A DNA stretch of 36,233 nucleotides, from IMG/VR virus record IMGVR_UViG_3300025393_000055; one strand, 5' to 3'. Source of the DNA: a virus. This document shows positions 3,365-36,233 of the stretch, piece after piece (position 1 is the first letter of the stretch; every line of letters begins with the position of its first letter). Both the position numbers and the translations under genes were made by a program. The notes under the pieces were generated by a model, which searched no databases, was not told the DNA's origin, and saw nothing but the letters and a program-made list of their open reading frames with translations.

Positions 3365-3757
3365 ATGGTGAGGGAGAAGACCTATTATTGTAGGTTCATC
3401 ATCCCCGAAGGCACTCGGAAACTCCCTTGGATTCCCGTTGCCGCGGCAAGCCCCGAAGCGGCAATCAGAAAGGTGCGTTCGGGGACCGATGCCCCAGTTG
3501 AGGTGAGGTCTTCCTCCCCCTCCGGGGGTGGAGTCCTCAAGACCCGGGCTTGGATTGAGCCCGAACCGAGTGATGTACGGGTGTTTGACGGCAAGCGGTA
3601 TCAGTACTATGCCGGTGACGCTGGAGATCCCGCCCGAGTAGCCAGGATTGCCCGCGAGTTGCGGGAGAGCGGGCACCTCGCCCGCGTCGTGAAGGCAAAG
3701 GGCGGGGTATCGCACATTTACTGGTGCCCGAGATTTGGGCGGCAGGGAGGGAGATAA
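3365..3757 (+). CDS. Basic protein with C-terminal FDGK-family domain
   Basis: RVFDGKRYQYY...RELRESGHLARVVKAKGGVSHIYW. Confidence 0.75.
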   Translation: MVREKTYYCRFIIPEGTRKLPWIPVAAASPEAAIRKVRSGTDAPVEVRSSSPSGGGVLKTRAWIEPEPSDVRVFDGKRYQYYAGDAGDPARVARIARELRESGHLARVVKAKGGVSHIYWCPRFGRQGGR

Positions 3758-3759
3758 CG

Positions 3760-4236
3760 ATGTCCCCGGCCAAACGGATGCCCCTCGGCCTGCAGGCCCG
3801 GCTGATCCGCACCGACCTCGTCGCCGCGGGCTACGAACCCGAACTGAGCGACATCCGCTCGTTCATGGACAGCACCCTCTCCCTCCCGGAGAACCGGATC
3901 CTCGTCGCGAACGCCTTCGGCTACCGGCCGGGCGCCCGGCGGGGTCTCCCCCCGCGGAACCTGGCCGACCTCACGACGCAGGCCCGGCTCTGGAACCGGC
4001 AACAGGCCGACCGCCGCCGCCGGGCCGCCCCGGCCCCCGCGAAGAAGCAGGCCCGGCGCAAGCGGAAACTGACGACCCCCGCCCGCTGGCAAGTCGACCC
4101 GTGGCCGCGGCCCGGGGATGTGATCGATGAGGGCCGGAAGGCGAAGCTCCCCGGCCGCCGGGTCGCGGAGAAGAGCGGGAAGGTCTATTACGAGCGCCGG
4201 CGGAACCGGAGCGACATGCCCTGGAAGAAGGTGTAA
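3760..4236 (+). CDS. Arg-rich protein with PGxR...YYERRRNRSD C-terminal motif
   Basis: GGAGGGAG RBS before ATG 3760; C-terminus similar to 23445..23738. Confidence 0.7.
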   Translation: MSPAKRMPLGLQARLIRTDLVAAGYEPELSDIRSFMDSTLSLPENRILVANAFGYRPGARRGLPPRNLADLTTQARLWNRQQADRRRRAAPAPAKKQARRKRKLTTPARWQVDPWPRPGDVIDEGRKAKLPGRRVAEKSGKVYYERRRNRSDMPWKKV

Positions 4237-4239
4237 ACA

Positions 4240-4452
4240 ATGGCACAGAACGCAGCAAACAGGATGCCCGCCCCTCCCCGGGAGCGGGTCTTCGGCGGTG
4301 AGGTCTTCGAGCTCTGGACCGGCGAGTACGGCCCGGATCCCGGTGGCCACACCAAGGCACAGGCCCAGAAGTACGCCGGAGACCTCCGGCGGCTCGGGAG
4401 TTACGCCCGGGTTGTGCAGTATGGCAGGAAGTATTTCGTGTACTTCCGGTGA
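4240..4452 (+). CDS. Small basic FDGK-family protein (copy B of duplicated gene)
   Basis: Near-identical to 808..1017. Confidence 0.8.
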   Translation: MAQNAANRMPAPPRERVFGGEVFELWTGEYGPDPGGHTKAQAQKYAGDLRRLGSYARVVQYGRKYFVYFR

Positions 4453-4486
4453 GAAAAAGTGCAAGTGTAGGAAAATGAGGTGAAAA

Positions 4487-4753
4487 ATGGCAACGTATCT
4501 ATCATCAAAAGACGCGAAATGGGTCAAAAAACTCACAGAGGATGAGATTGAAAACCTTGTACGTATTGGGTTCGGTCAACCCAAATTCTACCGGCCAGAG
4601 GTCTGGAGGAAGGCAAAACGGGTAATGATCATTGCCTGTTCTTTGGGTCTTGCTGAACCTTTTGATTTCGGGCGGGGGAAAGGAAAGTACCTCACCGATC
4701 TGAGTTACTCGGATGTGGTTTCAGGCATTCTCAAAGCACGAACCCGTCTTTGA
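4487..4753 (+). CDS. Hypothetical protein
   Basis: Leader AAAATGAGGTGAAAAATG; 88 aa ORF. Confidence 0.7.
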   Translation: MATYLSSKDAKWVKKLTEDEIENLVRIGFGQPKFYRPEVWRKAKRVMIIACSLGLAEPFDFGRGKGKYLTDLSYSDVVSGILKARTRL

Positions 4754-7648: not shown

Positions 7649-9331
7649 ATGACCGAGAAAATGCCTCTCAAAAATGCACTAGAAATGCACATCCGGGCGA
7701 AATACCCCCTGATCTGCATCGAAACGCACGAGGAGCCTCGTGTGGTTCAGATCCTCGCGGAGACCGCGGGCCCGGCTGGCCTGAACCGGAGCCTCCTGTA
7801 CTGGTCCGTGACCCGGGGCCTCCTCGACCTGACCCAGAACCTTCAGGAGATCGCCTCTGGCGAGATGAAGGTCCTTGAAGGGCGGGGGGTCCTCGTCCAG
7901 AAGACCCCGGAAGGCCTCTACGAGATCATCAGGGGCGAGCCCACACCGGGTCCTGCTGACCCCTACCAGATCCTTGAGGACATCGGCCGGTACCCAGAGC
8001 CCGGGATCTTCGTCCTCGCGGACTACCACCAGTATCTCCGGGAGCAGAACCCGGACCCGATCACCGTCAGGAAGGTGCGGGACCTGTTTGCGGATCTCAA
8101 GGACACCCGGAAGACCATCATCATGATCTGCCCCCGGCTCAGCCTCCCCGGCGACCTCGAGAAGGAGATCACCTACCTCGACCTCCCGCTCCCGAGCCGG
8201 GACGAGCTCGGCGCGATGCTGGATCAGGCCGTCGCGGAGATCCGGGAGATCGCGGAGGAAGGGAACGAGCGGACCCGGGAAGCCCTGGCGGTCATCGAGC
8301 CCCAGCTTGCTGACCGGGACAAGATCGTGGAGGCCGGGGCGGGCCTCACCCGGGCCGAGTGGGAGAACGTCATCGCGAAGTGTTTCGTCTCCCGCCGGCT
8401 GGAGACCAGCCTCATAAATCAGGAGAAGCGCCAGATCATCAAGAAAGGCGGCCTCTTAGAGTTCTTCGAGACCCCCGAAAGCATGGCCAGCGTCGGCGGG
8501 CTCGCGAACCTGAAAGCCTGGCTCACGAAGGCCAAGCTTCGGTTCACCCCGAAGGCCAAGGCGTTCGGCCTCACCCCGCCCCGGGGGATCCTGCTCGTCG
8601 GGCCGCCGGGCACCGGGAAGTCCCTCGTTGCGAAGGTCGCGAGCCACGAGCTCCAAATCCCCGCCCTCCGGCTCGACATGAGCATGATCGCGAGCAAGTA
8701 CTACGGGGAGACCTCCAATAATATCAGAAAAGCCCTCGATATGGCCGACGCGGTCGCTCCGGTCGAGTTCTGGCTGGACGAGGTGGAAAAGATGTTCGCC
8801 TCGGGCCAGGGGGGTACCGGCGGGCATGAGGAGACCATGCGGTCCCTCGGCGCAGTCCTCACGCACTTTGAGGAATCGACCCAGCCGGTCTTCCGGATCG
8901 CGACCTGCAACCAGATCCAGAACCTGCCGCCGGAGTTCATGGCGCGGTTCGAGAAGGTCTTCTTCGTGGACCTCCCGAACCATGCCGAGCGGCAGGAGAT
9001 CTTCGCGATCCACCTCCGGCAGGTGGGCCGGGACCCGGCGGGGTTCGACCTCGCCGCCCTCGCGGCCGCGACCGAGCGGTTCGTCGGCCGGGAGATCCGG
9101 AACCTCGTCCAGGAGGCCCTGCAGACCGCCTTCTACGAAGGGGTCGAGGTCACCACCGACCACCTGATCGTGGAGTCAGCGAAAGTTACGCCGATCTTCT
9201 CGCAGAAAGAGGACGAGATCAATGCCCTCCGCGAGTGGGCGGCAAAGAACGCGGAACCTGCCTCGGCGGTCGTCGCGGCCGAGCCCGCGAAGGCGAACAA
9301 GGGCAAGGGGCGGCGGGGGGTCGAGTTCTAA
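7649..9331 (+). CDS. Ycf46-like AAA+ ATPase
   Basis: IRAKYPLICIETHEEPR N-domain; VGGLANLKAWL; Walker A GPPGTGKS; Walker B WLDEVEK; PPEFMARFEKVFFVDLP; start inferred at 7649. Confidence 0.9.
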   Translation: MTEKMPLKNALEMHIRAKYPLICIETHEEPRVVQILAETAGPAGLNRSLLYWSVTRGLLDLTQNLQEIASGEMKVLEGRGVLVQKTPEGLYEIIRGEPTPGPADPYQILEDIGRYPEPGIFVLADYHQYLREQNPDPITVRKVRDLFADLKDTRKTIIMICPRLSLPGDLEKEITYLDLPLPSRDELGAMLDQAVAEIREIAEEGNERTREALAVIEPQLADRDKIVEAGAGLTRAEWENVIAKCFVSRRLETSLINQEKRQIIKKGGLLEFFETPESMASVGGLANLKAWLTKAKLRFTPKAKAFGLTPPRGILLVGPPGTGKSLVAKVASHELQIPALRLDMSMIASKYYGETSNNIRKALDMADAVAPVEFWLDEVEKMFASGQGGTGGHEETMRSLGAVLTHFEESTQPVFRIATCNQIQNLPPEFMARFEKVFFVDLPNHAERQEIFAIHLRQVGRDPAGFDLAALAAATERFVGREIRNLVQEALQTAFYEGVEVTTDHLIVESAKVTPIFSQKEDEINALREWAAKNAEPASAVVAAEPAKANKGKGRRGVEF

Positions 9332-9358
9332 CCCCCCTGCCTCTTTCGGAAAGGGTAA

Positions 9359-9424
9359 ATAGGATGACCGATAATATTCTGTTACTGACCTGCATGTGCA
9401 GGTTAAAATGGGTGATTTAAAATG
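9359..9424 (+). promoter_or_regulatory. Second operator block plus double-AAAATG leader
   Basis: ATAGGATGACCGATAATATTCTGTTACTGACCTGCATGTGCAG-GTT-AAAATGGGTGATTTAAAATG. Confidence 0.55.
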
Positions 9425-9811
9425 AGCCACATAACCACCATCAAGACCAAAGTCGTCCTGAAGGACGAGTCCCTCCTCCGGGAGGTCCTGGCCGGGATGC
9501 AGCGGACCCTGCCGGGGTTCACCATCGAGCAGTCCACGAACAAGCAGGGCGACCGGCAGATCCTCGTCCGCTACGCCCCCATCGAGACGTTCCAGAAGAA
9601 CGGCAACCTCCGGTTCGTCCTGAAGGACGGGGCCTGGCAGATGCAGGGCGACGACTACAAGTGCTGGAATGAGTTCAAGGCCGTCACCGACCAGGTCCTC
9701 GTCGGCTACCAGCAGGCCGCCCTCCAGCGGGTGCTGATCCGGAACCGCTACTCGACCACGGCGCAGGCGTTCTCCCCATCCTGCGTCACGATGCACGCGA
9801 GGAGGTTCTGA
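9422..9811 (+). CDS. DUF1257 (Ycf35-like) protein
   Basis: MSHITTIKTK...LLREVL N-terminus and position after Ycf46-like AAA. Confidence 0.75.
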   Translation: MSHITTIKTKVVLKDESLLREVLAGMQRTLPGFTIEQSTNKQGDRQILVRYAPIETFQKNGNLRFVLKDGAWQMQGDDYKCWNEFKAVTDQVLVGYQQAALQRVLIRNRYSTTAQAFSPSCVTMHARRF

Positions 9812-9813
9812 CC

Positions 9814-10029
9814 ATGGCCGAAGAGTACGAGATCGAGATCACCCCGCAGGGCATCAGGCTCGACGCCAGGGGGTTCCAGAACAAGGCCTGCCTGAAAGAA
9901 CTCGCGGAGATCGAGCGGATGCTCAAGGACCTCGGCATCGAGACCACACTTGGAGACCAGAAGCTCAAGCGCGAGGCGATGCTCGCGGACAACACCCCGC
10001 AGACTACTCGGCGGGAGGTGCGGCGATGA
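9814..10029 (+). CDS. DUF2997-like protein
   Basis: IEITPQGIRLDARGFQNKAC...IERML; canonical neighbour of DUF1257. Confidence 0.7.
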   Translation: MAEEYEIEITPQGIRLDARGFQNKACLKELAEIERMLKDLGIETTLGDQKLKREAMLADNTPQTTRREVRR

Positions 10030-10229
10030 TCCCGATCATCTCCACCCCGCCGGAGGAGGCCGCCCGCTACCTCGGCACCGGTCTCCCGACCGAGCTGAAC
10101 GCTCAGGTCGGCCCGGACGCCCTCACCCTCTGGGCCGACTACCCCTACGACGAGCCGGCCCTCCTCGCGGAACTCGCGGCCCTCGGCATCGAGGTGGCGC
10201 AGCCGCCCCAGTTCTCCCCCTGCGGGTGA
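10026..10229 (+). CDS. Hypothetical protein
   Basis: Overlap-coupled ORF ending FSPCG. Confidence 0.6.
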   Translation: MIPIISTPPEEAARYLGTGLPTELNAQVGPDALTLWADYPYDEPALLAELAALGIEVAQPPQFSPCG

Positions 10230-10891
10230 TGGCGATGGAGAAGATCTACATCGTGCAGGTCCGGATGTCCAGCCAGAACCACACCGAGAAGGCGTCCGAA
10301 GAGGTCTCCTCGAAGGTCTCGATGATCTTCTACACCTTCCCGAAAGAGACCCGGCAGAAGATCTCGGCCTGCCGGCAGCGGTTCAAAGGCCCGATCTACA
10401 AGGAGACCATCGCCTACCCGCCGAAGACGAGCGACTCGACCGGGTTCTCGCGGCTCTACCTGTGCAACGAGACCCAGCAGAAGACCATTGAGGCCCGGAT
10501 CGCGGAGGCCGATGTGGCGATGAAGGAGATCCACCCGGACCTCCGGGCGGCGGTGGACTTTCTCCCTCTGGACGCGGCCGAGATCGGGCGGGGGGCGCTC
10601 TACGAGCAGATCGCGGACTCGATCAAGTACAAGGTCTTGAACCAGGCGTTTGAGAAACTGGCTCATGTCGTCCTGGACGAGAACTCCGTCCTGACCCCCA
10701 GGACCAAGGCCCGGCTCAGGAAGATGGTCGATCAGCTCGACGCCCTGAACATCCTAGAGGACGAGGATGTCACGGCCAAGATCGCCTCCATCCGGCAGAA
10801 GATCGAGGACGAGGCGATCATGCCCCTCAAGGGCGAGCTCGCGGACGACCTCAAGGTGCTGAAGGGGCGGTTTCATGCGCTCGAGTTCTGA
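10229..10891 (+). CDS. Helical hypothetical protein (possibly DUF3150-like) with RFxxLEF tail
   Basis: TGATG coupling; ends KGRFHALEF; DUF3150 guess is from context only. Confidence 0.7.
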   Translation: MAMEKIYIVQVRMSSQNHTEKASEEVSSKVSMIFYTFPKETRQKISACRQRFKGPIYKETIAYPPKTSDSTGFSRLYLCNETQQKTIEARIAEADVAMKEIHPDLRAAVDFLPLDAAEIGRGALYEQIADSIKYKVLNQAFEKLAHVVLDENSVLTPRTKARLRKMVDQLDALNILEDEDVTAKIASIRQKIEDEAIMPLKGELADDLKVLKGRFHALEF

Positions 10892-10927
10892 GGGGCGGGG
10901 CTACCCCCCGCTCGCCTGGGGGGCCCG

Positions 10928-11182
10928 ATGACGATTTGTGGTTGCTGGGAGCATTATCCCCCTCCCCCACAGGTCTATGATCCCGCGACGGATCTCCAGA
11001 TGATCCGGCACGAGGTCGAGGAGATCCTGCGAACCCAGCAGGCCATCAGTTCCCGACTGGACCGGCTCGCCGCGGTAACCCCCGGGGTACGAGAACTCCG
11101 GGCCGGGGTGCAGCCCTCGGTCCCCCGCACTCACGAGGGCCGGTTCAGGACGCTGGAGTTCCCGGCGCAGGAGGAACCATGA
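10928..11182 (+). CDS. Hypothetical protein with RFxxLEF motif
   Basis: EGRFRTLEF near C-terminus. Confidence 0.6.
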   Translation: MTICGCWEHYPPPPQVYDPATDLQMIRHEVEEILRTQQAISSRLDRLAAVTPGVRELRAGVQPSVPRTHEGRFRTLEFPAQEEP

Positions 11183-11517
11183 GCCCCCGCGATGAGCCGC
11201 CGAAAGACCTCGCCAGCCAGCGGTACCGGGAGTTCTTTGAGGCCTTCGCCAGGTCTGGGCGACCCACGTACCAGATCTCCGGGCGCGACGAGTATGCGTT
11301 CCTGTGGCGTCAGCGGCACCGGGACCGGGTGGCGGAGCGTAATGCCTCGAAGGCCTGGTTCGATGAGCTCATGCCCGGGCCTCCCGCCCGGGTTACCCCG
11401 CCAGAGCCAGAACCCCGCGAAGAGGTTCCCGAGCCGGAGCCGCGGGAGGTCGCCCCGGTGGAGACTCCTCCGGCCCCCCCGAAGCGGAAGGGCCGGTTCC
11501 AGACGCTGGAGCTGTGA
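11179..11517 (+). CDS. Hypothetical protein, Pro/Glu-rich linker, RFxxLEL tail
   Basis: ATGA coupling; ends KGRFQTLEL. Confidence 0.7.
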   Translation: MSPRDEPPKDLASQRYREFFEAFARSGRPTYQISGRDEYAFLWRQRHRDRVAERNASKAWFDELMPGPPARVTPPEPEPREEVPEPEPREVAPVETPPAPPKRKGRFQTLEL

Positions 11518-12128
11518 CGATGCCTCCGAGGAATCCCGCCCGATATGACGCCCCCATCCACACCTTCGTGGGGGGGGCCCTAGGGGCAGGCAAGACCCGG
11601 GCCGCGATGGAGGTCATCCCGCACGCCCCAGACATCTGGCATACCCTCTGGCCGGAAGACCCGGCGCCGGGGGGAGAGTGGTCGGGCGGGAGGTGGAATC
11701 CCCAGACCCCCGCGAGCCCGCAGGAGTTCAGCAGGTTCTCCCAAGGAGATCTGTCCCTCCTGGCCCGGGGAAGAGGGGTCTCCTCGACTGTGGAGATCGG
11801 GGGGGAGCCGCACCGTGTCGCGGCCCTGATCTCCTCAAAGGAGGGACACGTCTGGATCTGCCCGACCATTAAAGAGGTTGCCGCGAAGGCGCACGCGATT
11901 CAGGGGGAGTGCTGGCAAGCCCTCGCGGCACCCCCGGGGCAGTTCATCCCGCCTCAGACCGCCAGCATCGCCAAGGGGCCGATCCGCGTGATCAAGGTCC
12001 CCCGGAACCCCCGGCAGGGGCCGGGCTGGTACGTCTATCTCTGCGTGCCCCTCGGGGCCGAAAGCCCGCCCCCGGAGCCCGAACCGAAGAAGAGATCGCA
12101 GAGCCGATTCAAAAACCTCGAACTCTAA
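11514..12128 (+). CDS. Hypothetical protein with RFxxLEL tail
   Basis: Ends QSRFKNLEL; start GTG 11514 or ATG 11520. Confidence 0.65.
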   Translation: MTMPPRNPARYDAPIHTFVGGALGAGKTRAAMEVIPHAPDIWHTLWPEDPAPGGEWSGGRWNPQTPASPQEFSRFSQGDLSLLARGRGVSSTVEIGGEPHRVAALISSKEGHVWICPTIKEVAAKAHAIQGECWQALAAPPGQFIPPQTASIAKGPIRVIKVPRNPRQGPGWYVYLCVPLGAESPPPEPEPKKRSQSRFKNLEL

Positions 12129-13932: not shown

Positions 13933-14355
13933 GCCCGGATCTCCTGCCGCAGGCGCCCTCTCCCGGGGGGCATCTCCCCTCTCTTCTCCGGCACAATTCT
14001 CTCCCGGCACCCCCCGCTCAAAACGCGATAGCGTGGCTCTGGTGCGATCCTGCGATCCGAGGATGTGCGGCATGGCCCGCCGGGAGCCTCGCCCAAACCT
14101 AAGCCTCGTTCCGCTCAAACGAAGGGCGGATCGGGCTTCGTTGCCCGTATAGCAACATATGGTTTATGGGCGAAACCGTGGCCGCCTGGGTGCAGGATCG
14201 CCCGGATCTCACTGGACGGCAGGGGGTTCGGGAACCCGCCCATGATCTTCTGTTTCCTGCCGATTTTCTGCACATGCAACTTTCTCGTTGCCCGGTTGGA
14301 AACCTTCATGTGGGATCGTCACCCATCCCCTCCGTACCCACACGGAGTGTTTAAA

Positions 14356-14847
14356 ATGCGCTGGACAAATGAGCAGCAAGCCCTGATCGTAAAATATCGT
14401 GGAACGAACGCCCCTTCTCCCACACTCTTGACGCGGATCCCCGAAGGGGATCGAAGATATAAATGCCCGGTCTGCCACCTCGTCCTCTCTTCTGCCGACC
14501 TCATCGAGGGCCGGTGCCCCGTCTGCGGCGAGGCCGAGGCCCTGCGGATCATGTGCCCCCTCGACCACACCCACTGCCCTCATGCCGTCGTTGAGTCGCT
14601 GGCCTACTGCCCCCTCTGCGGCGAGCCGGTCTGCCCGGAGTGCGGGAGCCATGATGTCTCCCAAATGAGCCGGATTACGGGTTACATCGGGGATTTAAGC
14701 GGCTGGAACGCCGGGAAACAGCAGGAACTGAAGGATAGAACCCGCTACGACCCCTTCGACCTCGCGGCCGTCCCGGCCCCAGCTCCGGCGAAGGTGCCGC
14801 CGCCGCCCGCCCACGCCCTCCCGGCCCCGATCGAGGTCGCGGATTAG
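14356..14847 (+). CDS. Stand-alone NrdD C-terminal-like protein (Zn ribbons + glycyl-radical loop)
   Basis: Multiple CxxC, CPECGSHDV, SRITGY glycyl motif, WNAGKQQELKDR; resembles small methanogen NrdD-related proteins. Confidence 0.8.
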   Translation: MRWTNEQQALIVKYRGTNAPSPTLLTRIPEGDRRYKCPVCHLVLSSADLIEGRCPVCGEAEALRIMCPLDHTHCPHAVVESLAYCPLCGEPVCPECGSHDVSQMSRITGYIGDLSGWNAGKQQELKDRTRYDPFDLAAVPAPAPAKVPPPPAHALPAPIEVAD

Positions 14848-15894: not shown

Positions 15895-16197
15895 TCAGTC
15901 CTCCTCCCCCTGTGTTGCACCCGGCGGGGAGATAATGCTTCCCCAGATCTGCTTTGCAAGGGTATCAGCAACCCGGATCACGGCATTTACATCTGCCGAG
16001 CTGGCAACCGTCAACTGGTAGGTTTTGGCATCTCCTTCGGGGGCCCCGGGGTCGATACAGACCGCGTCCAGGCAATAGCACCCCGCGTCGGGGTCGTACA
16101 GCACGACAAACCCCACTACGGCTTCGACCGGGATGTAGTGCAGGATCACATCCGTTCCGCCGGTTCCATCAAGTTTCAATACAGGCATTTCCTCCAT
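15895..16197 (-). CDS. Hypothetical acidic protein
   Basis: 100 aa ORF in operon. Confidence 0.6.
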   Translation of the reverse strand: MEEMPVLKLDGTGGTDVILHYIPVEAVVGFVVLYDPDAGCYCLDAVCIDPGAPEGDAKTYQLTVASSADVNAVIRVADTLAKQIWGSIISPPGATQGEED

Positions 16198-17113
16198 CTC
16201 CTAGACGAAAACGGCTTTTCGGGCCGGGGGCCCGGTTCTTCGATCTGTCTAACTGATCGACATCGCACATCCAGAATACCTGCGGGCGGTTCGCCCACCA
16301 CGCAACCTTCCGGGTCCACTCGGTTCTCTTTCCGTACTGCATCACAAACGGCGTTGCTCCAAGTTCCTTGAGCAACCGGCACCGATACTTATCCTCTTCG
16401 GGGGTCGTGTCGAACCCGACGAGGACATACACGGACACCTCGTGTCGGGTGCGGATCCCGGCATCCTGCAACAGTTGAATGCCTCGCCGGATCGCGGCCT
16501 CGTCCTGAATCCGGTCGAAAGCGAAGTGTAATTGTCCGGACCATTCCAGGTCTGCGAGCCTGCCCGCGATATCCTCATCAAGGATCCGAATATCCATCCC
16601 CTGAACCGCATTGAACCGGAGCCCCTGCTCGAGAATGTAGTCTGTGTTCTCGAAGAACCACGCTTTGTCTGCGTAAACATTGTTATCGAGGCACACCACT
16701 GCATCAAACCGCTCGTCATGCCATTCGTGGATGTGCTGCCACCTCTGGATCTTCCCCTCCTTCTCCGGGACCACACAGAACGGGCAGCGTCGGATACAGC
16801 CGCGGGTCGTGAACCCGAGTGAGTACGTAGAAGGGTACAGATCATAATCCGGCTTGCAGAACTCGATCTCGTTTGGCAGGCGCTTTGCGAGGTCTACGCC
16901 CGTGCCCCCGATATCAACTTCGGCGTTCGGGAACATCTGGCGCTGGGCGGTTGCCTTCCAGGCATTCTTGGTAAAGGTCACGGAAACAAAGACCCGATCC
17001 GGGTCTGGCTCATCAAAGCTCACTGAATGCCCCATATTCTTGTAGTATGCCGACAGTTTCATCAGGGCAAGGTTCGGGATTTTACTGTCGATATCGATCA
17101 GTCTGACCTTCAT
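16169..17113 (-). CDS. Radical SAM protein of the virus-associated IDSKIPNLALMK type
   Basis: TTRGCIRRCPFCVVPEKEG (CxxxCxxC); GGAGGAGGA RBS before ATG 17113. Confidence 0.85.
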   Translation of the reverse strand: MKVRLIDIDSKIPNLALMKLSAYYKNMGHSVSFDEPDPDRVFVSVTFTKNAWKATAQRQMFPNAEVDIGGTGVDLAKRLPNEIEFCKPDYDLYPSTYSLGFTTRGCIRRCPFCVVPEKEGKIQRWQHIHEWHDERFDAVVCLDNNVYADKAWFFENTDYILEQGLRFNAVQGMDIRILDEDIAGRLADLEWSGQLHFAFDRIQDEAAIRRGIQLLQDAGIRTRHEVSVYVLVGFDTTPEEDKYRCRLLKELGATPFVMQYGKRTEWTRKVAWWANRPQVFWMCDVDQLDRSKNRAPGPKSRFRLGDGGNACIET

Positions 17114-17736
17114 TCCTCCTCCCCGTTCTTCCGGCGGAGCTGCCGCTCGCACTCCTCCTGGAGCATCGGGTACTCGGCCGCGATCCGCTCGTAGATCTTC
17201 GCGTTCAGGATCCGATACGCCTCCTGCTTCCCGACCCGGCCGAAGAGGGCGTCCAGCCGGGCCTCGTAGTTTGAGAGGTTGTGCCGGAGGTGGTTGACCG
17301 CGATCCGCTGCAGGAACTCCGGGGAACTGTCCCGCGACGCGGGCTCGTATTTGTGCCCCCGTTCCTGGTAGAGGTCCTCGTGGAACCGGTTGTAGGCCCG
17401 GATCGCGGCATCCACCACGACCTCGTAGGGCTTCGGCCGGAGGACGATCTGCCAGGTGGCGAGCTCCTGCAGGAGCCGGTCCCGCTTCGTCGCGACGGCC
17501 TTCCGGGCCCCACCCCGCCGGCCCGCGTTCCCGGCCACGAACGCCTGATATGCCGCACTCTGCTCGGCCGCCTCGACCCGGCTCGTCCGGTACAGCTTCG
17601 CCGGGGCCGCCGACCGGAAGACCGGGTTCTTGGCCTCTCGGTCGCAGGGGCCGAGGAAGGCGACGATGGCCTTCTCCGTCCAGCCCCGGGCCTTCAGGCC
17701 CGCCTTGGTGAGGTATTCTTCCTGATCGCCGGTCAT
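17110..17736 (-). CDS. Hypothetical virus-type protein
   Basis: LKARGWT...NP......LY...RVE pattern; overlap coupling on both sides. Confidence 0.7.
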   Translation of the reverse strand: MTGDQEEYLTKAGLKARGWTEKAIVAFLGPCDREAKNPVFRSAAPAKLYRTSRVEAAEQSAAYQAFVAGNAGRRGGARKAVATKRDRLLQELATWQIVLRPKPYEVVVDAAIRAYNRFHEDLYQERGHKYEPASRDSSPEFLQRIAVNHLRHNLSNYEARLDALFGRVGKQEAYRILNAKIYERIAAEYPMLQEECERQLRRKNGEEE

Positions 17737-34941: not shown

Positions 34942-35232
34942 ATGGAAGAAGTTCTAATCTACGGATTTTCCAGCGACCTCCTGGTCCTGGACGGGGCGGT
35001 ACGGGAGGAGATCCCGGTCGCCTGTGGTGAGCAGATCGATCTCGCATTCACGGACGGCACCGTCCTCCGGGCGGGCTACGGGCTTCAGGGCCCTGAATGC
35101 TGGCAGATCGACCGGGTCGCGGCCGGGTCGGCGCAGTACGAGCGCCGGGCGGCCACCGACCCGAAGACCGACTACTCCGATGTCATAATCCTGACCGGAG
35201 AGCACCTCGCCCTGCAGGGGGTCCCGGCATGA
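34942..35232 (+). CDS. Hypothetical protein
   Basis: Leader AAAATGTGGTGTAAAATG. Confidence 0.7.
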   Translation: MEEVLIYGFSSDLLVLDGAVREEIPVACGEQIDLAFTDGTVLRAGYGLQGPECWQIDRVAAGSAQYERRAATDPKTDYSDVIILTGEHLALQGVPA

Positions 35233-36233
35233 GCAACGGCAAGCCCGTCTGCCCCGCCTGCGGCAGCACCTCGACCTATGTCCGGCAGCGGGACGGTGCG
35301 GTCTGCTGCAAGGTCTGCGGCCACGGGGTCAAGCGCCGGGGGGCGGTCCAGCATGAGTGCCCGCTCTGCCGGAGCAAGCAGGTCTACTACCGGTCGAAGA
35401 CCGGGGCGTATGCCTGCCGCCGGTGCGGGCTCGGCCAGGACAACGGGATCAAGGGCGAGTACCTGGACGAGATGGCGGAGCGGGCCCGGATCGAGTACCG
35501 GGAGGCCGGGGACGTAACCGCATGTCCGGTCTGCGGGGGGCCTGTGATCGAGAAGCTGTTGGACGGCCAGTTCACCTGTACGCAGTGCGGGTTCTCCCCG
35601 GAGAGGCGCATTCTGAGCCCGGCATTCCTCAAAAAACTCCCGCCCTTCCGGGAGATCCGGCGGGACCGGCCGGATGCCGACACCCCGACCCCGCCGCCGG
35701 GCATGAGAGCCAATCCTCCGGGCTTCCTCTCTGTCCCGCCGAACCCGACGATGTCTCTCCCCTTCAGGAGATCTCCGGTCCCGCAGGCCCCTCCCGTCTG
35801 CTCTCCGGCCCCCATCAGACCCGAAAGCCTATCCGGCCCGACCCTCGCGATCAACGGCCACCCCCTCGCCCTCAAGCAGGAGGCCGGGACGGTCTGGCTT
35901 GTCGTGGAAGCCCCGGACGGCGGGTTCCCCTTCGCCGGCACCTCGCCCTGCCAGATCCCGGTCTACGAGGCCGAGTTCCTGATCGACCTCGACCTCACCG
36001 ACCCCGCGACCGTCGCGGAGGCGTGGAAGACCGTCCTGACCCGGGCCAAGATCGGGCGGGACGACTTCCTGAAGGAGTTCCCCGCGAAGCTCGACGGGCT
36101 GACCCCGGCCCAGGTCACCGACCTGCAGGCGAAGGGGCTCCTCTCGCAGCGGGCCCTGGACCGGGTGGTGCTCGCGTTCCTGAACGAGAAACTGCCCGGC
36201 ACCACGCCGAGCATCGGCTACGCCGCGATGTTC
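35229..36233 (+). CDS. Triple zinc-ribbon protein, 3'-truncated by window end (absent from ORF track)
   Basis: Open frame of 335 codons to the end; CPAC/CKVC, CPLC/CRRC, CPVC/CTQC, Pro-rich linker, then a globular domain. Confidence 0.75.
   Translation, partial: MSNGKPVCPACGSTSTYVRQRDGAVCCKVCGHGVKRRGAVQHECPLCRSKQVYYRSKTGAYACRRCGLGQDNGIKGEYLDEMAERARIEYREAGDVTACPVCGGPVIEKLLDGQFTCTQCGFSPERRILSPAFLKKLPPFREIRRDRPDADTPTPPPGMRANPPGFLSVPPNPTMSLPFRRSPVPQAPPVCSPAPIRPESLSGPTLAINGHPLALKQEAGTVWLVVEAPDGGFPFAGTSPCQIPVYEAEFLIDLDLTDPATVAEAWKTVLTRAKIGRDDFLKEFPAKLDGLTPAQVTDLQAKGLLSQRALDRVVLAFLNEKLPGTTPSIGYAAMF

Follow-up and report, generated by a model that had tools for sequence, protein, structure and literature searches.

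A shared C-terminal tail, putatively a docking tag, on unrelated proteins encoded beside a Ycf46-type AAA ATPase in a viral element

The gene string and the shared tail

The window considered in this report is the whole 36,233-nucleotide stretch of the IMG/VR virus record IMGVR_UViG_3300025393_000055, and our subject is a co-oriented and tightly packed string of genes at positions 7649-12128 on its (+) strand. The string begins with the gene for an AAA ATPase, continues with genes for proteins of 129, 71 and 67 amino acids (aa) and ends with four consecutive genes whose products carry the same short peptide, [GS]RF..LE[LF], at or near their C-termini. The first of the four, which we refer to as a core partner of the ATPase, is a 220-aa protein (10229..10891, +) that ends KGRFHALEF, with the tail GRFHALEF at 10865-10888. 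The other three are referred to as clients. The smallest of them, specified by an 84-aa open reading frame (ORF; 10928..11182, +), has EGRFRTLEF followed by the six residues PAQEEP, so that its tail GRFRTLEF lies at 11138-11161; the 112-aa client (11179..11517, +) ends KGRFQTLEL, with the tail GRFQTLEL at 11491-11514; and the 204-aa client (11514..12128, +) ends QSRFKNLEL, with the tail SRFKNLEL at 12102-12125. The true start of the 84-aa ORF is likely to be the ATG at 11000, which would give a protein of 60 aa, since the ortholog in a close relative of the element (locus L009) begins at the same Met, after which the two proteins are 93% identical.

In the six-frame translation of the window the motif is matched only at these four sites, as compared to a mean of 0.01 matches in 200 shuffles. 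The original prediction, made from the DNA letters alone, had quoted five C-terminal endings, and all of them are present in the sequence; the claim that five proteins share one tail holds for four, since the ATPase tail, GRRGVEF, is one residue shorter than the others and has no Phe. The bodies of the four proteins had been described as unrelated, and our BLASTP comparisons agree, in that the weak matches found are confined to the linker and tail segments. The Pro/Glu-rich linkers that had been noticed upstream of several tails are seen in the 112-aa and 204-aa proteins.

A peptide that recurs in adjacent genes need not have a function of its own: it might be inherited from a common ancestor, reflect repeated DNA or arise from the signals that couple translation at gene junctions. 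Three of the four window genes overlap or abut the start codon of the next gene, and the GGAG in ...CTGGAGCTGTGA could act as a ribosome-binding site. However, the synonymous sites differ among the four tail copies (CGG/CGA, TTT/TTC, CTC/CTG and GAG/GAA), no ribosome-binding site covers the Arg-Phe portion, GGAG is missing from the tail of the 204-aa protein (CTCGAACTCTAA), behind which there is a spacer of 25 nt, and the same peptide is written in entirely different codons in the AT-rich phages that are discussed below. What is shared is thus a peptide rather than a DNA repeat or a ribosome-binding site, because the synonymous codons differ and one copy lacks GGAG. On the codon differences we reject both a DNA repeat and a Shine-Dalgarno by-product.

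Conservation of the tail in relatives of the element

The tail is retained in the relatives of the element. In 11 homologs of the 220-aa protein, at identities down to 54%, G-R-F-x-A-L-E does not vary, and F, L or I stands at the final position. Likewise, S-R-F-x-x-L-E-L is invariant in 7 homologs of the 204-aa protein, in which the Pro/Glu linker just upstream varies in both length and sequence. Orthologs of the 112-aa client end KSRFQTLEL (L009) and RSRFQVLEL (L004), and the 60-aa ortholog of the 84-aa ORF in L009 ends SRFRALEFPAEEDG, with the motif again six residues from the end; the six-residue extension past the motif is therefore itself conserved. The ATPases of these relatives end RRGVEF, RRRVEL, RRLEF or RRIEL. 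Contigs that carry more divergent homologs maintain the same gene order, namely the ATPase followed by proteins of 128, 71, 68 and 207 or 209 aa, and then a variable set. These comparisons support the idea that the tail is under purifying selection at the peptide level, on an end of the protein that would be flexible. The suggestion that the tail is a short linear motif on such an end has also held up, in that homologs preserve it without change as the linker drifts, and it falls in predicted disorder.

Downstream of the core, the relatives L002, L004, L009 and L010 have different sets of tagged genes. In L009 a gene of the IsrB type (RRXRR), at 3673-4719, occupies the position that is taken in the window by the tagged 204-aa gene.

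The ATPase and its own tail

The gene at the head of the string (7649..9331, +) encodes a 560-aa protein that is best described as a two-tier ATPase related to Cdc48/p97. Pfam recognizes AAA (E 9.5e-27) and AAA_lid_3, and the profile phrog_8638 covers residues 7-546 (E 5.1e-112), the N-terminal half included. In a phmmer search of the PDB the AAA module was closest to the D2 ring of Cdc48/p97/VAT (E 3e-53). An AlphaFold2 (AF2) model built with 129 sequences has a mean predicted local distance difference test score (pLDDT) of 92.6, and Foldseek aligned the full-length protein to the tandem D1-D2 tiers of p97/Cdc48 over 570-610 columns. Because of this alignment, together with the presence of a single Walker A motif (residue 318), we take the protein to be a two-tier ring ATPase with a dead (degenerate) first tier. 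When the window was compared with models of defence systems, none fitted beyond a generic AAA similarity to IetA and TRIP13.

The tail of the ATPase (9308..9328, +; the protein ends KGRRGVEF) is a shorter relative of the client tail at the end of a disordered linker. Residues 541-560 have low pLDDT in the AF2 model (<50 for the last six) and are predicted to be disordered, and the linker leaves the ring on its D2 side.

The tail core across the ATPase family

An exhaustive search detected 3,584 relatives of the ATPase at E <= 1e-30, and tails were scored in the best 150 of these, which served as representatives (35-50% identity). About 30 of the 150 end exactly in hydrophobic-[E/D]-hydrophobic, usually in the form R-x-[ILV]-[ED]-[LFIV], and about 25 more have this core no further than 3 residues from the end; two ATPases carry the full client form. 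A viral sample, consisting of 80 loci that were fetched by ATPase alignment and in which genes were called as greedy longest ORFs, provided 72 ATPases whose ends could be scored. Exact endings in hydrophobic-[E/D]-hydrophobic occur in 32 of them, where ~0.7 would be expected, and 45 of the 72 have the core within two residues of the end. On a tree of 207 tips that was built without the last 30 residues, the tail trait underwent at least 36 changes, versus ~65 when the labels were shuffled. Judged from these sequences, the trait is widespread in the ATPase family, and it is labile. Absence of the motif from homologous loci had been named as a reason to abandon the original prediction; instead, the tail recurs with the ATPase family in independent virus lineages.

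Tagged proteins in other viral lineages

Among the neighbours of the ATPase in the 80 viral loci, the strict client form stands at the terminus of 7 proteins (0.29 expected), and all 27 of the neighbours that end in hydrophobic-[E/D]-hydrophobic are encoded on the ATPase strand, which carries 63% of the genes. Two gene families stand out in these neighbourhoods. Family 1, a gene for 264-308 aa directly downstream of the ATPase, occurs in 20 loci, in every one of which the ATPase is tail-positive; 13 of its 20 members have variants of the tail at their ends (QRALEL and QPALEF, for example), and ~20 residues upstream there is often a further copy. Family 2 (~113 aa) starts with MPCDT, ends with HSHDGGxTWH and lies beside tail-positive ATPases only (15 loci versus 0). 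Its members, which include those of L015, L037, L046, L051, L053, L055 and other loci as well as gp93 of mycobacteriophage Corndog, have no Pfam match, and the family looks like a metal-binding one. Hidden Markov models (HMMs) of families 1 and 2 had no match in the window.

The largest set of tagged proteins was found in a phage with a genome of 548 kb. At the ATPase locus of this phage (L077), PRDLDL is the ending of the ATPase, and R[FWL]xxLDL that of five proteins encoded nearby. When the complete 548-kb record was searched with a degenerate DNA pattern, 33 matches were obtained, some of them ending in TAG; 31 matches lay on the coding strand, as compared to 1 and 0 for a reversed-pattern control. 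The matches represent 28 different proteins, 51-187 aa in length, that end [ED]-P-I-x-S-R-F-[ED]-I-L-D-[LI]. With their tails removed, these proteins form 24 BLASTP clusters. One of the clusters is a five-member paralog family, which is the sort of grouping that common ancestry of the tails would produce; however, the other 23 of the 24 are single-member clusters. Paralogy is rejected on account of the unrelated bodies, in this phage as in the BLASTP comparison of the window proteins, and on the combined evidence we regard it as highly improbable that the tail has no function of its own.

Tandem arrays of genes for 50-115 aa are found in the 548-kb record (G001) at 136-140 kb and 147-148 kb, as well as in loci L096, L103 and L108. 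Each array gene ends RF[ED]ILD[LI], many have N-terminal CxxC pairs, and the arrays look like a hypervariable block of tagged mini-proteins. The ATPase gene itself is situated in a replication neighbourhood (L077, 4845-12612), between a gene for a superfamily 2 (SF2) helicase and genes for a DnaB-like helicase and a DnaG-type primase.

A stricter pattern, applied to all viral contigs, picked out mainly three giant records, with 20, 11 and 10 matches, and all three encode the ATPase. In the two of these that are new here, related giant phages with 10 or more tagged genes apiece, the identity of the ATPase is 76-77%; two contigs with single matches that were tested do not encode it. In Corndog the ATPase gp96 ends VRVLDL, and tails are also found on gp92 (HRFSQLEH), gp116 (DRFLMLELTKETV), the endonuclease VII gp11 (TRFQNLDLQPPEA) and gp95, which has two copies; we estimate from the background rate in the 80-locus set that ~0.2 such ends would be expected there by chance. 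The acidic residue of the tail tends to agree within a genome, being D throughout in the 548-kb phage and E throughout in the window lineage.

A tail at the extreme C-terminus, in which hydrophobic and acidic residues stand beside the free carboxylate, might be a degron, recognized in the pore of the viral unfoldase or by a protease of the host, that would set the time at which viral proteins are unfolded or destroyed. ClpX reads C-terminal tags of the ssrA type in a similar way. The Cdc48-like nature of the partner would suit this role, as would the small size of many of the tagged proteins in the 548-kb phage, which are presumably of the kind to be expected among early genes. Nevertheless, by this reasoning the ATPase would tag itself, and scans of the module with Pfam, PHROG and defence models found no protease gene. 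Furthermore, in the 84-aa family and several other proteins the motif is conserved at 1-12 residues from the end, or twice internally, and a pore-read degron fits poorly with such conserved non-terminal copies. We consider the degron explanation unlikely.

Partners of the ATPase in the cassette

The three genes between the ATPase and the tagged genes belong to a set that is found with related ATPases elsewhere. The first (9422..9811, +) encodes a 129-aa protein, starting MSH, that resembles DUF1257 (Ycf35). Its language-model look-alikes, at a score of 0.93, are DUF1257 clusters in 30 of 30 matches, and an iterated HMM and an alignment connect it to phage homologs; the Pfam model PF06868 (DUF1257) did not match the window protein or two orthologs even at E 10. 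The next gene (9814..10029, +) encodes a 71-aa protein that is DUF2997-like by iterated HMM and by an alignment with a conserved G..G..C core. The Pfam model PF11211 (DUF2997) matched weakly, and in the L004 ortholog only (E 0.013, 15.8 bits versus a cut-off of 24.1). The labels DUF1257 and DUF2997, which had been used in the original prediction, are thus borne out by the language-model look-alikes and the iterated HMMs, and only weakly tested by Pfam. In the window lineage the DUF1257-like proteins end A-R-R-x and the DUF2997-like proteins R-R-E-[VI]-R-R, and both of these ends are Arg-rich and unlike the client tail.

The 67-aa partner (10026..10229, +) has no tail. It ends QFSPCG and is encoded at the same position in L002-L010, and the ending [FY]-S-P-C-G is found throughout this protein and its relatives, the conserved terminal Cys-Gly of which suggests a modified or reactive C-terminus. 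The 220-aa protein is probably a divergent DUF3150-like protein. An hhalign comparison with the DUF3150 family (PF11348) gave a probability of 75% and E 2.6e-5 over only 43 columns, and a Pfam hmmscan gave no DUF3150 match; the AF2 model is weak (pLDDT 58.7, too weak for a fold search), and its tail residues are unstructured (pLDDT ~29). No relationship could be detected between family 1 of the viral loci and either DUF3150 or the 220-aa family. With these assignments, the string in the window can be read as a cassette of a Ycf46-type ATPase with DUF1257-like, DUF2997-like, small and DUF3150-like partners, to which three lineage-specific tagged genes have been added.

The receptor of the tail

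The reading of the tail as a putative docking motif is well supported by its conservation and distribution, from which we infer the binding itself. As we envision it, the tail would be a short linear docking peptide, or "tail tag", on a flexible C-terminal end. The core of the tag would be one or more basic residues followed by hydrophobic-[E/D]-hydrophobic, placed at the free carboxyl terminus or adjacent to it, and client tags would have in addition an Arg-aromatic pair four residues upstream, for a consensus of R-[F/W]-x-x-L-[E/D]-[L/F/I]. Such a tag might serve to recruit a variable, lineage-specific collection of otherwise unrelated proteins to one binding site of the Ycf46-type, Cdc48-like ATPase module. 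In the version that we prefer, this site would be on the ATPase ring, where the clients, be they substrates or adaptors, would dock. The six weaker tails of the ring might fill the same sites in trans as long as no client is present, and the stronger client tags would displace them.

Our best guess for the receptor is the ATPase ring. The ring is favoured because no component except the ATPase was found in all of the tail-bearing loci and lineages. The DUF1257-like and DUF2997-like proteins, which the original prediction had put forward among the candidates for a common hub, are disfavoured in this role: the former are encoded in 19 and the latter in 12 of the 80 ATPase loci, the ATPase alongside has no tail in most cases (12 of 14 scored loci), and neither was found in five tail-rich viral records. 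On these counts a general hub of this kind is unlikely. The more specific proposal, that the tag docks at a common site of the ATPase module and preferably on the ring itself, is one that we advance tentatively, as an idea that may well be correct but falls somewhat short of being probable.

Several observations weigh against this proposal. In the AF2 monomer model the ATPase's own tail is free, and is not docked on the body of the protein. There is no column of the ATPase alignment that is specific to the tail-bearing members, the largest difference in frequency being 0.45. In the AAA rings known to us that bear a shared tail themselves (HbYX, GQYL), the receptor is always a third party. Neighbours were detected within flanks of +-8 kb, as greedy ORFs and BLAST-level clusters, and a small, fast-evolving receptor could escape such a search. 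Finally, five other large viral genomes that encode the ATPase have only 0-2 pattern matches, as many as their controls. Since these five show no excess of client tails, tagging of multiple clients is restricted to certain lineages.

A strong rival to the ring as receptor is a third-party hub, i.e., a different protein, specified by the element or its host, onto which the ATPase ring and the tagged proteins would all dock through their tails. Proteasomal ATPases and unrelated activators are recruited to the 20S core through HbYX or GQYL tails in a parallel manner. The strength of this alternative derives from the undocked tail in the monomer, the lack of an ATPase column that tracks the tail and the third-party receptors of known systems. 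In addition, the ATPase bears its tail on a long disordered linker that leaves the D2 side, which is also the arrangement in known ring-docking systems, and the ATPase of the 548-kb phage lies in a replication context, with genes for SF2 helicase and DnaB/DnaG-type proteins. Family 2, being exclusive to tail-positive ATPases, could be a lineage-specific receptor. On the other hand, no single family other than the ATPase is common to the window lineage, the giant-phage lineage and Corndog, and a hub provided by the host would, if the host of the window element is archaeal, have to be a target that is conserved between archaea and bacteria. We regard a third-party hub as quite possible, without considering it probable.

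A sliding clamp is one candidate for such a hub. Corndog encodes a clamp (gp84), with homologs of Ku and ParB nearby, and one of its tagged proteins is the endonuclease VII gp11; moreover, the tails QRALEL, QPALEF and RxLDL resemble what we take to be the C-terminal clamp-binding peptide, Q-x-x-L-x-[L/F]. However, the Gln of clamp-binding motifs is replaced by Arg-Phe in the client motif, no beta-clamp domain (PF00712) was found in the five tail-rich viral records, four of which are at least 90% complete, and there is no clamp among the larger ORFs of the window.

Whichever protein is the receptor, the tail might represent a virus-encoded protein address code, in which a shared C-terminal peptide brings a Cdc48-like unfoldase and a large, rapidly turning-over set of proteins to one receptor. 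We think of this broader interpretation as possible, yet doubtful.

Comparison with known systems

The proteasome-docking motifs HbYX of PAN, Rpt and Cdc48 and GQYL of Mpa and Bpa offer a similar situation, in that a flexible C-terminal docking motif is common to an AAA ring and to unrelated proteins, and the ATPase described here is likewise two-tiered and Cdc48-like, with a tail that leaves the D2 side. The tails themselves differ: HbYX requires hydrophobic-Tyr-any at the terminus, whereas in all of the tails reported here the penultimate residue is Glu or Asp, with Arg upstream. Another difference is that no ring partner, proteasome-like or otherwise, was detected in the window element, and the tagged set (~28 proteins in the 548-kb phage) is far larger.

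The XB peptide of SspB, which binds the N-domain of ClpX, and the MIM peptides of ESCRT-III, which bind the MIT domain of Vps4, also resemble the tail described here in being C-terminal peptides that follow a flexible linker, and they tether adaptors or substrates to an AAA+ unfoldase. In those systems the ATPase lacks the motif and has a dedicated N-terminal receptor domain, whereas the N-terminal half of the present ATPase is a degenerate AAA tier and the protein ends in the motif core.

Clamp-binding motifs (bacterial QL[SD]LF/QxxLxL, the archaeal PIP box and the gp45-binding tails of T4) are C-terminal hydrophobic and acidic peptides that bring unrelated proteins of DNA transactions to one hub. 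The likeness extends here to some family-1 tails (QRALEL, QPALEF), which fit Q-x-x-L-x-[L/F], and to the replication context; the client consensus differs in having Arg-Phe instead of Gln and in lacking the aromatic pair of the PIP box. The window tails do not match the bacterial beta-clamp-binding motif, in which Gln takes the place of their Arg-Phe, and none of them matches the PIP box, Q-x-x-[LIM]-x-x-[FY]-[FY].

The cassette as a whole has the same gene set as that of Ycf46 (AAA), Ycf35 (DUF1257) and DUF2997 in cyanobacteria and plastids together with the DUF3150 of phages, and the copy in the window is distinguished by its three additional, lineage-specific tagged clients.

The element and its context

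Other features of the window offer a few hints about the nature of the element. Its last ORF (35097-36233, +) specifies a TFIIB-type zinc ribbon and other zinc ribbons, and the former weakly supports the possibility of an archaeal host. A 260-aa ORF (14065-14847, +) has only the C-terminal glycyl-radical part of NrdD, and a radical S-adenosylmethionine (SAM) gene (16169-17152, -) matches phrog_9298. Close homologs of the element's genes (P0004 and L093) are found on short contigs that have been binned with Corynebacterium and with Patescibacteria, the latter contig measuring 2.6 kb; these are probably cases of a mis-binned mobile element and would carry no information about the host.

Implications

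In the searchable literature we found no description of the tail motif, nor of a mechanism for Ycf46, DUF1257, DUF2997 or DUF3150; what has been published on Ycf46, Ycf35 and DUF2997 consists of gene-cluster and expression data. The Ycf46-type ATPase and its DUF1257, DUF2997 and DUF3150 partners are widespread in phages and mobile elements and, by family name, in cyanobacteria and plastids. Within this range the window represents a very clean case, in which four proteins carry an invariant tag while their linkers drift. A tag that is common to a motor and to a definable list of proteins predicts interactors, can serve as bait in pull-down experiments and nominates candidate clients in each genome. 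Corndog can be grown on Mycobacterium smegmatis and provides a cultivable test bed for such experiments.

With ~28 tagged proteins, the 548-kb phage would have an unusually large viral system for the sorting or recruitment of proteins. If the tail is indeed an address code, phages and archaeal elements would possess a sorting logic that has not been described for them, and that would be comparable to the logic of proteasome activators or of peroxisomal signals. It would also provide a first mechanistic handle on the orphan Ycf46, Ycf35 and DUF2997 genes of cyanobacteria and plastids.

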